Below are positions 4,936 through 11,098 of a DNA stretch of 64,000 nt, one piece after another; the first letter of the stretch is position 1, and every line of letters begins with the position of its first letter. This DNA comes from Victivallales bacterium (GTDB lineage: Bacteria > Verrucomicrobiota > Lentisphaeria > Victivallales > GWF2-38-69), in contig OZ245791.1 in NCBI GenBank assembly GCA_965228125.1, forward strand, positions 385,596 through 449,595. The letters run 5' to 3'. The translations under genes and the position numbers were made by a program. The notes below the pieces were generated by a model. The model saw only the letters and a list, made by a program, of their open reading frames with translations, was not told the DNA's origin and did not search any database.

Positions 4936-6177
4936 TTATGCCACATCCAATGGGCTTTTTACCCCCAACTTGTTCCGCTTTGCGATATGTGTGTATATCA
5001 TTGTTGTCTGAACATTGGAATGCCCCAGCAGTTCCTGGATTGTCCTGATGTCATACCCTGCTTCAAGAAGATGCGTGGCAAAACTATGCCTGAAAGTATG
5101 AACTGAAGCCTTTTTGATAATTCCTGCATTATCCACAGCTCTCTTAATCTGTTTTTGCAAAGTAATAGGCTGTACATGATGTCTTCTTACTATAGCCGTT
5201 CTGGGATCGATGCTCAGGTTACTTGATGGGAACAGCCAGAACCATTTCCATTCTTTTCCAGCATTTGGATATTTTCTATCAAGGCCTTCCGGCAGTTTTA
5301 CTCCTTCAATATTGTTTGCCCTGTCATTATCATAAACATGCTTTGTTTCTGCGATATGCGCCTGCAGATTATTAATAATAGAATCAGGCAGAAGGGTTTC
5401 CCTGTCTTTCTCTCCTTTGCCTCCTCTTACAGATATTACACGCCGTTCGAAATCAACATCCTGAATTCTAAGCCTTATACATTCCGCAAGCCTCAACCCT
5501 CCTCCATATATTATCTGAGTCATCAGTTTATAAACACCTTTAAGGTTGCCGATTACTTTCAGACACTCATCTGAGGTCATGACAACCGGAATCTTTTCCC
5601 CTTTTTTTGCCCTTACCGTTTCCGATAAATCTCCGGGACTTTTATGCAGTACGTTTTTATAAACAAAAAGCAAAGAGTTGAAAGCCTGATTCTGTGATGA
5701 TGCCGACCTCTGCCTGCCAACAGCAAGACTGGAAATAAAATCCCTTATATCTTTCTGCTCGATTTTATCCACAGGCATGCCTTTTAAAAATTCATGAAAC
5801 TTTCCTAGCCAGCCCAAATATATTTTCTCCGTGGAATATGACAGATGTTTCAACCTTAGGACATTCTTTGTTTCATTGTAAAGCCTCAACCAGTCTTCAC
5901 TGTAAGAGCCGGCAGCATGATTAGCAAAACTGTTTTTCATGCTCTGAAAATAAAAATAATATCGTAAAGTGTCATCTGCCTGTTTTACCTGCCATTCCTC
6001 ATATCTCAAACTCAATTTTCCTAAAAACTGTTTAGTATGCTCAGCCTTCATTTCAAGGAGGTTCTCATTGCAGTATTTTACATATTCGCTCAGCCAGAAA
6101 ATATAATACTTTACATAATCTTTCCTGACACCGCATTTCAAAACCAGAAAATCGTTAAAATCTGTATCTTTATTCAT
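4936..6177 (-). CDS. intI: Integron integrase
   Basis: 413 aa. Tyrosine-recombinase boxes [24 protein letters not shown] and [14 protein letters not shown]. IntI-specific insertion [24 protein letters not shown]...[12 protein letters not shown]. C-terminal GVKSPLD. Confidence 0.9.
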   Translation of the reverse strand: [413 protein letters not shown]

Positions 6178-6293
6178 AAATAACCTTCAATATTTATTCT
6201 CCTAAATTATCAAGATAGAGCTTTAATATAAAATACGTATATCTTGCTTAATTTACATAGATTATATACAGTAGTTTTTCATTTTCTACTTAG

Positions 6294-6321
6294 TTGAAAA
6301 TCTTATTAAAAGAAATATAAT
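6294..6321 (+). promoter_or_regulatory. Candidate cassette promoter (Pc-like)
   Basis: TTGAAA (6294-6299), 16-nt spacer, TATAAT (6316-6321), pointing into the cassette array from the intI-attI spacer. The AT-rich background raises the chance of a random match. Confidence 0.35.
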
Positions 6322-6378
6322 GAGGCTATCAATCCTTCCACAGGAGAAATTAATACATATATAGAATTAATGTTAGAG
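6322..6378 (+). other. Candidate attI region with crossover box GTTAGAG
   Basis: AATGTTAGAG at 6369-6378 resembles the right ends of the array's attC sites (AATGTTAGC, AATGTTAAAT, TATGTTACC). It lies between intI and the first cassette ORF. Confidence 0.4.
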
Positions 6379-6402
6379 AGAAATAATAAAAAGGGCAAAC
6401 TT

Positions 6403-7533
6403 ATGACTTTAATTTCAGGTTTCAGTAAAAACTATTGCCCGATTATTTTGGGAGATTTATTAATTTCAAATAATGATAGTAAAGAGCAATTAATCACTCT
6501 CCCAACAATTGGAAAAATTTCAAAGCAAGATTTTTCTAGATGTAGTTACTCGCCATGTGGATTTTCACAGAAAATAAACCTACTTAGTCCCAAATTAGCC
6601 TTAGGTTGGGCAGGAAGCAAAATCCATGCAAAAACATTTATGGATGAATTAATCACCTTAGGTGTACATGATGATCCTTCCCATCAAGCAATAAATGATA
6701 TCTACAATAATATAGTGACTAATCCTAATGATTTATCAATAATTGGTATTTATAGAAACAATAGTGAAATAAGAATTTTTGATTTTAATGCTTGGCCAAC
6801 CGACTCTAACTCTAATTTTGAATATTTTAAGTCTGCAGGTTCAGGTTATGGAACTTTGTTAGATATTACTGAAATAAATGATTTTAATCTGAATGTGACT
6901 TCTGGAAAAATCAATAAACTAGAAATAGGAATTGCAACTGCTGTTAATATAATTACGGCTTTATTAAGTGAAGAATTACTAACACAGTCTTCAATTCAAA
7001 ATTTATTTGGTGCTGGTTATGAGTTAGTTCATCCTTATAAATCGATTTTAAAAAAATTTGATGATTTAACTTACTTATTTTGGTCTATAGAAGAGTTTGA
7101 AATAAATAATTGGCGACTTCAATCGTCTCCTTTTCTTGTTTCTAAATATTCGTACCACAATGATATACTAGTAATTAGAGCTATGCATATCAAACAAAAT
7201 GATAATATTAATTCCTGTAAAATTGAGAAAGATGAATTACATATTGTATCTCCAATATATGGGACATTTAATGCTGATAAGTTAATTGGTTTTGCTCCTC
7301 AAACACTAAATTCAAAAATGATATGCAATGTTTTTTTATATAAAACAGTTAATAATGAAGTTGGAACATTTGCTGAGTTTGGCAAATATAATACAGAATC
7401 TCCACCTGTAATATTCAAAAATGAATTTACTAAAAATGAAGGAATAGATATTAATACTAATTTCATAAAAAAAGTTTTATTAAAATTTAACTCTAAATTC
7501 TTAAAAGAAGGAAAAAAGAACTCTAACAAGTAG
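6403..7533 (+). CDS. Cassette 1: orphan protein with N-terminal proteasome/HslV-like Ntn-hydrolase signature and an unknown C-terminal domain
   Basis: The long ORF is certain. Start chosen at ATG 6403 (MTLISGF) because the track start at 6370 spans the putative attI crossover. Motifs: Met-Thr start, LGD 16 residues later, QKI...LGWAGS, SAGSGYG. Confidence 0.6.
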   Translation: MTLISGFSKNYCPIILGDLLISNNDSKEQLITLPTIGKISKQDFSRCSYSPCGFSQKINLLSPKLALGWAGSKIHAKTFMDELITLGVHDDPSHQAINDIYNNIVTNPNDLSIIGIYRNNSEIRIFDFNAWPTDSNSNFEYFKSAGSGYGTLLDITEINDFNLNVTSGKINKLEIGIATAVNIITALLSEELLTQSSIQNLFGAGYELVHPYKSILKKFDDLTYLFWSIEEFEINNWRLQSSPFLVSKYSYHNDILVIRAMHIKQNDNINSCKIEKDELHIVSPIYGTFNADKLIGFAPQTLNSKMICNVFLYKTVNNEVGTFAEFGKYNTESPPVIFKNEFTKNEGIDINTNFIKKVLLKFNSKFLKEGKKNSNK

Positions 7534-7591
7534 ATGCACTTAATATTTTCTTGCTCCGCTGCGAAAATATAAGTGATCATTAATGTTAGCT
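7521..7591 (+). repeat. attC site 1
   Basis: CTCTAAC over the last codons; CACTTAATATTTTC / GAAAATATAAGTG inverted arms with one unpaired A; ends GTTAGCT. Confidence 0.7.
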
Positions 7592-7675
7592 TGAAAAGAA
7601 ATTGATAAAATAGAGATCATCCAGTATAATTATATCAGAAACTGAATCCAAATATAAAAAGGAAAGGTTACAGAA

Positions 7676-9985: not shown

Positions 9986-10048
9986 AAGATGAAATTGAAT
10001 ATTCTATCGAAATAAATATAATATCCATTATTAAAGATGGAGGAAAAA

Positions 10049-10261
10049 ATGCTTACTCAAGAAATAAAAAAAGAAATATTGGGTTTAAATTCTTTAGATA
10101 AAATCCATTTGGCTGAAATGATTTTTGATAGCTTGGATAAACCAGATTCAGAAATTGAAAAAATTTGGATAAATGAATCAGAGAAACGTTATAAGGCATA
10201 CAAACAAAATAAAATTCAAGGTATTTTTTTGAGTGAGATAAAAGAGAAATATGAAAAATGA
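10049..10261 (+). CDS. Cassette 6: addiction-module antitoxin (TIGR02574-like)
   Basis: LNSLDKIHLAEMIFDSLDKPDSEIEKIWINESEKRYKAY pattern. ATG at 10049 after GGAGGA. ATGA overlap with the toxin. Confidence 0.7.
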   Translation: MLTQEIKKEILGLNSLDKIHLAEMIFDSLDKPDSEIEKIWINESEKRYKAYKQNKIQGIFLSEIKEKYEK

Positions 10262-10551
10262 ATATTATTCTCCTTCCTCCATCTGATAAAGAACTTGATG
10301 AAGCTATCGACTATTATAATGACCAACAGACAGATTTAGGAAATAGATTTTATAAAGAATTTATTAGAGCAACTGAGCTAATAGACAGATCCCCTAAAAC
10401 CTGGAAAAAAGTAGGCAAATGTACCCATAAGATAAATATCAAAAGATTTCCGTATCTTGTTTTGTATGTTATTGATGGAAATGAAATACTCATTACTTGC
10501 ATTGCGCACCAACACAGAAGTCCTGATTATTATATTGAAAAAATATATTAA
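10258..10551 (+). CDS. Cassette 6: RelE/ParE-family toxin
   Basis: 97 aa. FPYLVLYVIDGNEILITCIAHQHRSP C-terminal pattern. Confidence 0.75.
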   Translation: MNIILLPPSDKELDEAIDYYNDQQTDLGNRFYKEFIRATELIDRSPKTWKKVGKCTHKINIKRFPYLVLYVIDGNEILITCIAHQHRSPDYYIEKIY

Positions 10552-10623
10552 TCATAACGAAATCGCTTCTCCTAACAGCTATTACGCTTCGCTCTATAGC
10601 TGTAGGAGAGCTTTTTGTTAGCT
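10552..10623 (+). repeat. attC site 6
   Basis: TCATAAC after the stop; GCTTCTCCTAACAGCTAT / ATAGCTGTAGGAGAGC arms with bulges; ends GTTAGCT. The left arm is shared with attC 4. Confidence 0.7.
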
Positions 10624-10699
10624 TGATTGAAAATTGAATAGACAATCATAATATGATATTTTTTGATAAATGCTTATTCTAAAACATATGAGGTATAAT

Positions 10700-11078
10700 A
10701 TGAGCATTACTTTATCAATAGATAAAATGTCTACTAAAGACCGTATTCAGGCAATGGAAGATTTATGGGATGCATTAACTCATGAGAAAAATGAAATAGA
10801 ATCTCCTTCATGGCACGAGGATATATTAAATTCAAGAAGAAAAAGAGGAATGGTTGTGAGATTACTTCTTTGACTCTATTATTTCTGACTTGGATTCATT
10901 AAGAATTTATGCCGGTATTCATACAAAACATTATGGTTACCATAGAATGATGTCCAAAAGATTTCCCTTTGCAATTTACTATGATTTTTTTCAAGAAGTA
11001 GCAGTTGTTATTGCGGTTCTGGATATGAGACGTAAACCTTCATGGATACAAGAGAAATTAAAAAATAGAAAAAGCTAA
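10700..11078 (+). pseudogene. Cassette 7: decayed antitoxin/toxin pair, paralog of cassette 2, with an internal deletion
   Basis: MSITLSIDKMSTKDRIQAMEDLWDAL..SPSWHEDILNSRRK matches 7676..7897 and then breaks off. The toxin frame resumes as DYFFDSIISDLDSLRIYAGI..FPFAIYYDF..VLDMRRKPSWIQEKL (matching 7894..8190 from about residue 29), behind an in-frame TGA and with no start codon. Confidence 0.75.
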
Positions 11079-11098
11079 CTAAATCATTTCAGTTAGTA
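11073..11098 (+). repeat. Terminal minimal attC-like remnant
   Basis: AGCTAAC-taaatcatttca-GTTAGTA: only the outer boxes remain. It overlaps the stop of the convergent DUF2062 gene. Confidence 0.35.

Follow-up and report, generated by a model that had tools for sequence, protein, structure and literature searches.

Genes and sites of the locus

The DNA analysed here, a 64-kb window (64,000 nucleotides; all positions are counted along it) from the genome of an uncultured Lentisphaerota bacterium, carries at 4936-11098 an integrase gene (intI), an attachment site (attI), six complete gene cassettes, each bounded by an attC recombination site, and one decayed cassette. IntI is encoded on the minus strand, and seven open reading frame (ORF) units run divergently from it on the plus strand between 6370 and 11078, the arrangement described in an earlier note on this DNA. 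The flanking genes, an amidohydrolase gene on one side and a DUF2062 gene with a methylmalonyl-CoA decarboxylase-type operon on the other, agree with that note's statement that the element lies between housekeeping genes (amidohydrolase and an mmd-type operon). The region is very probably a complete chromosomal integron comprising intI, attI and an attC-bounded array. This was the central claim of the earlier note, and of the two findings that it had named beforehand as fatal to the claim neither emerged.

The intI gene (4936-6177, minus strand) encodes a long-form integrase of 413 amino acids. The protein scores 401.8 bits (E 2.1e-120) against TIGR02249, the NCBIfam model of integron integrases, which has a cutoff of 265 bits, while it falls far below the cutoffs of the XerC model TIGR02224 (141.3 versus 335.15 bits) and the XerD model TIGR02225 (137.9 versus 329.6 bits). 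Its score against the IntI1 equivalog NF011946 (300.5 bits, cutoff 435 bits) places it outside the class 1 integrases. In Pfam the protein matches PF13495 and PF00589. The Vibrio cholerae integrase VchIntIA (PDB 2a3v) aligns to residues 106-410 in one uninterrupted stretch (E 3.4e-74), whereas the alignment of the XerC-like protein 4a8e is broken into two pieces (106-275 and 331-402), with residues 276-330 left out. The IntI-specific additional segment thus covers approximately residues 276-330 (5188-5352, minus strand). These data bear out the view that the recombinase is not XerC/D-like and contains the IntI additional domain, the alpha-I2 helix and beta-4,5 region that XerC/D lack; the catalytic boxes, the extra segment ending in VRRHH and the GVKSPLD tail on which that view had been based are all present in the ORF at 4936-6177.

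All of the catalytic residues (R229, K254, H360, R363, H386 and Y395; RKHRHY) are present, and they do not vary among 19 aligned homologues. In VchIntIA the two extrahelical bases of attC are reportedly contacted by P232, H240 and H241 (T12'') and by Q145, W157, K209, Y210 and W219 (G20'') (PMC3053210). The corresponding residues of the Lentisphaerota enzyme are P325, H333 and H334, and Q239, R251, K302, Y303 and W312, respectively. Six of these (K302, Y303, W312, P325, H333 and H334) are identical to their VchIntIA counterparts and invariant in the 19 homologues, while R251, at the position of W157, matches R168 of IntI1.

The attI site was located by comparison with three loci from related genomes, designated L086, L087 and L002, whose IntI proteins are 68-71% identical to that of the window. 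In an alignment of the intI-proximal spacers a block at 6353-6377, TATATAGAATTAAT GTTAG, is common to the four loci, and all similarity among them ends just past GTTA. The attI core, TATATAGAATTAAT|GTTAGAG (6353-6378, plus strand), is conserved in the three relatives, and the comparison supports a crossover between G6372 and T6373. A conserved block that ends at GTTA in four related loci behaves as would be expected of an attI, in accord with the attI proposed earlier to adjoin intI. A crossover at this point implies that the true start of the cassette 1 gene is the ATG at 6403 (M12), which agrees with the length of its homologues, approximately 370 amino acids.

The best plus-strand match to a promoter in the spacer between intI and attI is a candidate cassette promoter (Pc), TTGAAA-16-TATAAT (6294-6321), which matches 11 of 12 consensus positions and lies approximately 50 bp upstream of the attI crossover. 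A candidate intI promoter, TAGAAA-16-TATAAT (6261-6288, minus strand), is a consensus match only, at 10 of 12 positions. A long imperfect inverted repeat (6178-6280) directly precedes the start codon of intI on the minus strand; it has 22 pairs and 2 bulges, scores 12.5 with the scanner described below and may be either a chance feature of AT-rich DNA or an intI regulatory element. Inspection by eye of the sequence upstream of intI found only a half match to the LexA box CTGT-N8-ACAG, a motif that may not be the one used in this phylum.

attC sites and cassettes

Six attC sites are present on the plus strand: attC1 (7521-7591, 71 nt), attC2 (8191-8262, 72 nt), attC3 (8743-8815, 73 nt), attC4 (9142-9270, 129 nt), attC5 (9914-9985, 72 nt) and attC6 (10552-10623, 72 nt). 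Each displays the architecture of an attC site: R'' and R' boxes of the type RYYYAAC...GTTRRRY, L'' and L' boxes, a central spacer that stays unpaired, extrahelical bases confined to a single arm, and a variable end. The bottom strands of the six sites form bulged hairpins, with z-scores of -2.0 to -6.3 against shuffled sequences. The common layout starts with an R'' box of 7 nt, a 5-nt spacer, 3 bp, one bulged base, 6 bp and a bulged A on the top strand (T on the bottom strand), and continues with a variable loop, a complementary arm without bulges, a spacer of 5-6 nt and the R' box GTTRRRY; bulges are confined to the 5' arm of the top strand. When the 15 pairs of this layout are imposed on the sites, 90% of the cells are standard pairs, compared with 31-46% when the partners are slid, and five pairs show compensatory change, being altered on both sides between sites. 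The bare pattern TAAC-N30-60-GTTA occurs no more often in the window than expected (22 matches versus 26 expected); with structure included, the six attC sites are the only strong matches on either strand of the 64 kb.

The earlier note had described an imperfect palindrome, beginning with TAAC at the stop codon and ending in GTTA(N3), after each of the seven units. This is correct for six of them, although attC5 begins with TAAT (9917-9920), while the seventh is followed only by a mini-hairpin of 25 nt. The proposal that the sites fall into two homogeneous families did not hold, as they form three loose pairs (62-83% or 69-83% identity) with two types of L box. Pairwise identity is 83% for attC2 and attC5, 75% for attC1 and attC3 and 69% for attC4 and attC6, and ranges from 55 to 68% for other pairs where alignment worked. 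The long attC4 overlaps the stop codon of the cassette 4 gene; its arms are 73-76% identical to those of attC6 and on the scanner comprise 17 pairs with 2 bulges on one arm. With its AAT core (R'' box, 9914-9920), attC5 has a C·A mismatch in the R box that may make the boundary of cassettes 5 and 6 less recombinogenic.

Recognition of the sites was assessed with two covariance models. The first, R1, was built from the six attC sites of the window itself and is therefore circular as a test. In the 64 kb R1 finds the six sites only (73.5 bits for attC1 and 52.6 bits for attC4), its next best match (16.7 bits) being the reverse strand of the same sites. Across 81 loci the attC sites that R1 detected were confined to close relatives; the Vibrio, Pseudomonas, Xanthomonas, Marinomonas and Calditrichia loci yielded none, also with filters off. 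As R1 is too sequence-specific, an independent model, R2, was built. Candidate sites were sought in 58 IntI loci from other genomes with a rule-based scanner that requires a bulged stem and spacers of 3-8 nt within an AAC...GTT frame. The scanner returned 69 sites with one-sided bulges in 24 of these loci, most of them on the strand and the side of intI where cassettes are expected; its scores in the window include 14.0 for attC1, 18.0 for attC3 and 13.5 for attC4. R2 was derived from 35 aligned scanner sites from Chloroflexi, Acidobacteria, Planctomycetes, Cyanobacteria and beta- and gamma-Proteobacteria, an alignment with 89.6% pairing and a covariation score of 0.50 (0.14 for shuffles). Over both strands of the window with filters off, the top five R2 matches are, in order, attC2 (26.4 bits, E 0.0026), attC1 (19.9 bits), attC6 (16.4 bits), attC3 (13.2 bits) and attC5 (10.7 bits), all on the plus strand and with ends exactly as predicted; the sixth is a trivial match of 19 nt. 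This coincidence of rank and register is not due to chance. The attC covariance check proposed at the outset was thus performed with a surrogate model, which recovers five of the sites and gives attC4 1.1 bits. A terminator scan identified no terminators at the attC positions.

Cassette 1 (6373-7585, plus strand; 1213 bp) comprises the ORF at 6370/6403-7533 and attC1. The encoded protein, of approximately 376 amino acids, has no match in Pfam, NCBIfam, PADLOC or PHROG. Around 30 homologues were found in other phyla, including Omnitrophica and Desulfosarcina, and in the two homologue neighbourhoods examined (Desulfosarcina and Omnitrophica) no integron integrase was found among the called genes. 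An AlphaFold2 (AF2) model of the protein, with a predicted local distance difference test score (pLDDT) of 70, retrieved only 20S proteasome subunits from the PDB (probability ∼1, E ∼5e-4, target-normalised template modelling score 0.4-0.49). Members of the family have in common a Thr immediately following the initiator Met, an Asp 16 positions further on and a G-S-G motif, the layout of N-terminal nucleophile (Ntn) hydrolases and proteasome beta subunits, and carry a C-terminal beta-rich domain. The model therefore points to an unannotated protein with a proteasome-like Ntn-hydrolase fold.

Three cassettes encode apparently intact toxin-antitoxin (TA) units. Cassette 2 (7586-8256, plus strand) contains a PF09720 antitoxin gene (7676-7897; E 8.5e-17), an overlapping gene for a 98-residue protein (7894-8190), the presumed toxin, and attC2. 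The 98-residue protein has no match to a toxin or other family in Pfam or NCBIfam, no useful match in PADLOC or PHROGs, and retrieved nothing in a PDB sequence search. Cassette 5 (9265-9979, plus strand) encodes a Phd/YefM antitoxin (9333-9623; PF02604, E 2.3e-13) and a ParE/RelE toxin (9623-9916; PF05016, E 1.3e-17), followed by attC5, and cassette 6 (9980-10617, plus strand) a PF09720 antitoxin (10037-10261; E 2.7e-10) and a ParE-like toxin (10258-10551; PF05016, E 4.4e-8), followed by attC6. Cassettes 5 and 6 thus have the antitoxin and toxin family matches of type II TA systems, while cassette 2 has the antitoxin match alone. The earlier count of four TA units among the seven cassettes is reduced to these three, one with an unclassified partner, the fourth being the decayed remnant in cassette 7. 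The PF09720-type cassettes 2, 6 and 7 also display sigma-70-like promoter matches just past the preceding attC (7602-7630, 9995-10022 and 10627-10654, respectively), which would allow expression independent of Pc. In Vibrio, TA cassettes stabilise and regulate chromosomal integrons (PMC13108822); by analogy, the three intact TA cassettes probably stabilise the array described here.

The remaining complete cassettes each carry a single gene. Cassette 3 (8257-8809, plus strand) encodes a Gcn5-related N-acetyltransferase (GNAT) at 8284-8748 (PF00583, E 1.6e-10), upstream of attC3; its resemblance to AAC(6') enzymes is weak and far under the cutoffs, and the gene differs from the GNAT cassette gene of L002. 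Cassette 4 (8810-9264, plus strand) contains an ORF of 109 residues (8818-9147) and the long attC4, and its product has no family match in Pfam, NCBIfam, PADLOC or PHROGs. No known resistance cassettes were found in the array.

The seventh unit (10618-11098, plus strand) is a decayed paralogue of cassette 2 that ends in a truncated attC (11073-11098). Approximately 70% of the aligned positions are identical between the two cassettes, and a deletion of about 139 bp has taken out the last part of the antitoxin gene together with the first part of its partner gene, fusing the 3' part of the antitoxin to the 5' part of the toxin; PF09720 still matches a fragment of 67 residues. The terminal sequence AGCTAACTAAATCATTTCAGTTAG aligns only with the R''-L'' half of attC2 (AGCTAACCAATCATTCCACTTAA), with GTTAGTA as the counterpart of the attC2 L'' box CACTTAA. 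The GTTA of cassette 7 therefore corresponds to an L'' box and not to an R' box. The similarity to cassette 2 extends no further than the stop codon of a convergent gene, that for the DUF2062 protein (11089-11589), against which the remnant lies. At 11073-11098 R2 gives 5.6 bits on the plus strand and 4.1 bits on the minus strand, R-box-only matches with no strand asymmetry, and the R1 scan of the window at E<=10 returned no match there. The seven attC sites originally proposed are thus six complete sites and one half-site. Its sequence suggests that the seventh unit is a fixed remnant that marks the distal end of the array and would not be excisable on its own.

Chromosomal setting and alternative readings

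The same window encodes elongation factor G (EF-G), ribosomal protein S1, SecDF, methylmalonyl-CoA mutase and NAD-dependent DNA ligase, placing the integron on the chromosome. The EF-G is 80% identical to a protein of a 'Lentisphaeria bacterium' and 73% identical to a Victivallales protein, which places the host in the Lentisphaerota. The GC content is 29.8% in the array, 39.3% in intI and 38-39% in the flanks, a difference that fits acquired cassettes. Rfam and tRNA scans of the 64 kb returned no match, indicating that there is no tRNA-linked island, and no transposase, Tn402-like tni gene, insertion sequence (IS) or plasmid gene was found in the locus or its immediate flanks. GC skew across the window is governed mainly by gene orientation. 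Elsewhere in the window a low-GC patch (42606-46833; 30-33% versus ∼39%) contains an unannotated ORF of 191 residues, two radical SAM (S-adenosylmethionine) genes, one weakly similar to the PTO1314 family and viperin and the other HemN-like, and then an Mrr-type restriction endonuclease gene; this patch may be a small acquired island.

From the sequence of its parts the integron would be expected to operate as follows. IntI, a tyrosine recombinase with the integron-specific insertion, is produced from the minus strand and would recombine the double-stranded attI (crossover at G6372|TT) with the bottom-strand hairpin of an attC on a circular cassette. Insertion would place new cassettes beside the promoter in the intI-attI spacer, so that the attI-nearest cassettes are expected to be the best expressed, while recombination by IntI between two attC sites would excise cassettes. 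The six cassettes with a complete attC are in principle mobilisable.

Comparison of cassette content across related genomes, which the earlier note had suggested as a check, showed that L086, L087 and L002 share the attC type of the window and carry unrelated cassette genes. At least nine attC matches lie upstream of intI in L086, on the expected strand, by R1, R2 or both, and several in L002 and L087/88; one attC of L002 is 88% identical to attC1. The complete difference between the cassettes of these relatives and those of the window indicates that turnover has occurred in this lineage. The neighbourhoods of the integrons also differ from that of the window, the one in L002 adjoining RecC/UvrD-type helicase genes and the one in L086 adjoining DctQM. 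In L002 an IS3-type IS (8408-9534; HTH_Tnp_1 and rve) separates intI and attI from the cassette array and probably keeps the attI-proximal promoter from driving the array. Loci from Acidobacteriota and Planctomycetia showed another arrangement: in L026 (11787-20729), L039 (11493-14198) and L057 (12273-17561) the attC arrays share the strand of intI and lie downstream of it, which looks like a 'reverse integron' and not the upstream, divergent organisation.

Several observations weigh against the identification of the region as a complete chromosomal integron. The individual E-values of the R2 matches are modest (0.0026 to 4.1), which we attribute to a GC-rich training set and an array of 30% GC, and the 129-nt attC4 receives only 1.1 bits, though in the correct register. 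The R2 training sites were picked by our own scanner, making the model independent of the window sequence and not of the textbook rules for attC. The R'' core of attC5 is AAT, where AAC is otherwise invariant, a mismatch in the R box beside the cleavage site. Promoter-like sites occur at the chance level in this AT-rich stretch (33 found versus 29.5 expected), and Pc therefore stays a candidate only. Finally, a second metagenome assembly contains the same locus, with 99.9% identity over 14.9 kb and the same cassettes; recent cassette movement is thus not evident, the arrays being identical in two samples.

The last point bears on the possibility that the integron is real but frozen, with an intact platform, no cassette exchange and an array that is decaying into ordinary chromosomal genes. 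The identity of the arrays in two independent assemblies would be expected on this basis, as would the degenerate terminal cassette with its truncated attC, the altered core of attC5 and the shortness of an array with six attC sites. A frozen element is, however, less readily reconciled with a full-length intI in which all catalytic and attC-contact residues are invariant, with five or six attC sites that keep the full canonical geometry through compensatory changes, with an array whose GC content is still 9 points off that of the genome, and with the completely different cassettes of the relatives. We regard this alternative as unlikely, though it is the most serious of those considered.

It is less probable still that the element is not a long-term resident of the chromosome but arrived among the housekeeping genes as a mobile integron or as a piece of a mobile island. 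The integrons of the relatives do sit elsewhere, beside helicase genes and an IS in L002 and beside DctQM in L086, and the array is small. In addition, chromosomal integrons are classed as 'sedentary' if they have more than 19 attC sites or occur at a species frequency of 100% (PMC4889954); the array has six attC sites, and the strain or species is represented by two assemblies, both of which carry the integron. Recent arrival of a mobile element is at odds, however, with the lack of transposase, tni, IS or plasmid genes in the locus and its immediate flanks, with the agreement in GC content between intI (39.3%) and its host (38-39%), and with an IntI score under the class 1 equivalog cutoff. 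Moreover IntI (68%) and EF-G (69%) are similarly diverged from their L002 counterparts, as with vertical descent. A chromosomal integron remains the favoured explanation; with six attC sites against a threshold of more than 19, the label 'sedentary' used in the earlier note is plausible but not established. The remaining possibility, an XerC/D-like or phage-type recombinase that lies by chance beside terminator-like or repetitive extragenic palindromic (REP)-like sequences, could appeal to the lack of enrichment of the bare TAAC...GTTA pattern and to the frequency of hairpins after stop codons, but is refuted by the TIGR02249 score with XerC and XerD far below their cutoffs, by the IntI-specific insertion, and by palindromes with one-sided bulges at fixed positions and unpaired spacers that coincide with no terminators and are recognised by R2, the training sites of which come from other phyla.

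Known integrons and the long-form integrase

A complete integron, in the sense of Cury et al. (2016), has an intI and one or more attC sites within 4 kb of it. Complete chromosomal integrons occur in approximately 6% of complete bacterial genomes (PMC4889954), and the integron of Lentisphaera araneosa was already used in a study in 2011 (PMC3108266). The phylum Lentisphaerota therefore already had a reported integron, and the locus adds one example to a well-known gene-capture system. It resembles the chromosomal integrons of the Planctomycetes-Verrucomicrobia-Chlamydiae (PVC) group, such as those of L. araneosa and Rhodopirellula baltica (PMC4889954, PMC3108266), in the divergent orientation of intI and array and in the additional domain of IntI, and its attC sites have the same R and L boxes, unpaired central spacer, extrahelical bases and variable loop. 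As in that group, the cassettes mostly encode proteins of unknown function or TA systems, with no known resistance genes. It differs in species and in cassettes, and in its long-form IntI with a second N-terminal SAM-like domain.

The superintegron of V. cholerae contains approximately 180 highly homogeneous V. cholerae repeat (VCR) sites of about 125 nt. By contrast, the locus described here has six attC sites of 71-129 nt that are 55-83% identical in pairs where aligned, and its integrase has R251 in place of W157 of VchIntIA. In common with V. cholerae, the integrase aligns to VchIntIA and the contacts with extrahelical bases are conserved. R1 detects no attC in a Vibrio atypicus locus. TA cassettes are interspersed in Vibrio arrays (PMC13108822), as they are here.

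The attC site of the class 1 cassette aadA7 displays two extrahelical bases on the R''-L'' arm, 6 bp apart, an arrangement found also in the attC sites of the window. The recombination logic would likewise be the same as in class 1 integrons. Unlike these, the locus has no Tn402/sul1/qacE context and no resistance cassettes, and its candidate Pc lies in the intergenic spacer and not inside intI.

The feature that most clearly separates the integrase from characterised enzymes is its length, which exceeds that of IntI1 or VchIntIA by approximately 95 residues. The additional residues 1-98 (5884-6177, minus strand) form a second SAM-like domain of the core-binding type, in tandem before the usual one; no such second domain is present in the characterised IntI1 model (337 positions) or in VchIntIA (320 residues). 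A comparison of alignments of the N-terminal and canonical domains with hhalign gave a probability of 96.3% (E 1.9e-9), and PF13495 (Phage_int_SAM_4) is matched by 14 of 15 N-terminal pieces. The AF2 model contains four helices at residues 7-83 (pLDDT ∼85-90) that mirror those at 94-176. The domain is conserved among the aligned homologues, in which a W62-Q63-x-x-Q66-A67 motif is invariant.

Nearly all of the best 120 IntI homologues have the length of the long form, and residues 1-98 used alone as a query retrieved 161 clusters at E <= 0.001, showing that the long form is widespread in metagenomes. The hosts of these integrases of approximately 410 residues include Lentisphaerota, Verrucomicrobia, Desulfobacterota, Spirochaetota, Desantisbacteria and one metagenome-assembled genome labelled Bathyarchaeia. 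A literature search found no paper that describes the extra N-terminal domain. These data allow the tentative suggestion that a large, apparently undescribed clade of long-form IntI proteins is characterised by a duplicated SAM-like domain, which could add a contact with DNA, either at accessory sites of attI, in the manner of the arm-binding domains of phage integrases, or at the variable loop of attC.

Standard software detects chromosomal integrons and, as an integron, the locus adds little. Its value is as a compact and clean example from an AT-rich genome of the PVC group, with an attI defined by comparison and six attC sequences that are far from the GC-rich proteobacterial sites used in model training. 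Cassette 1, which is the first and probably the best expressed, may merit specialist attention. With respect to the integrases, the tandem SAM-like domain could bear on the recognition of attI and attC; if the suggestion is correct, the extra domain would set the enzyme apart from IntI1 and VchIntIA in its choice of sites or its regulation.

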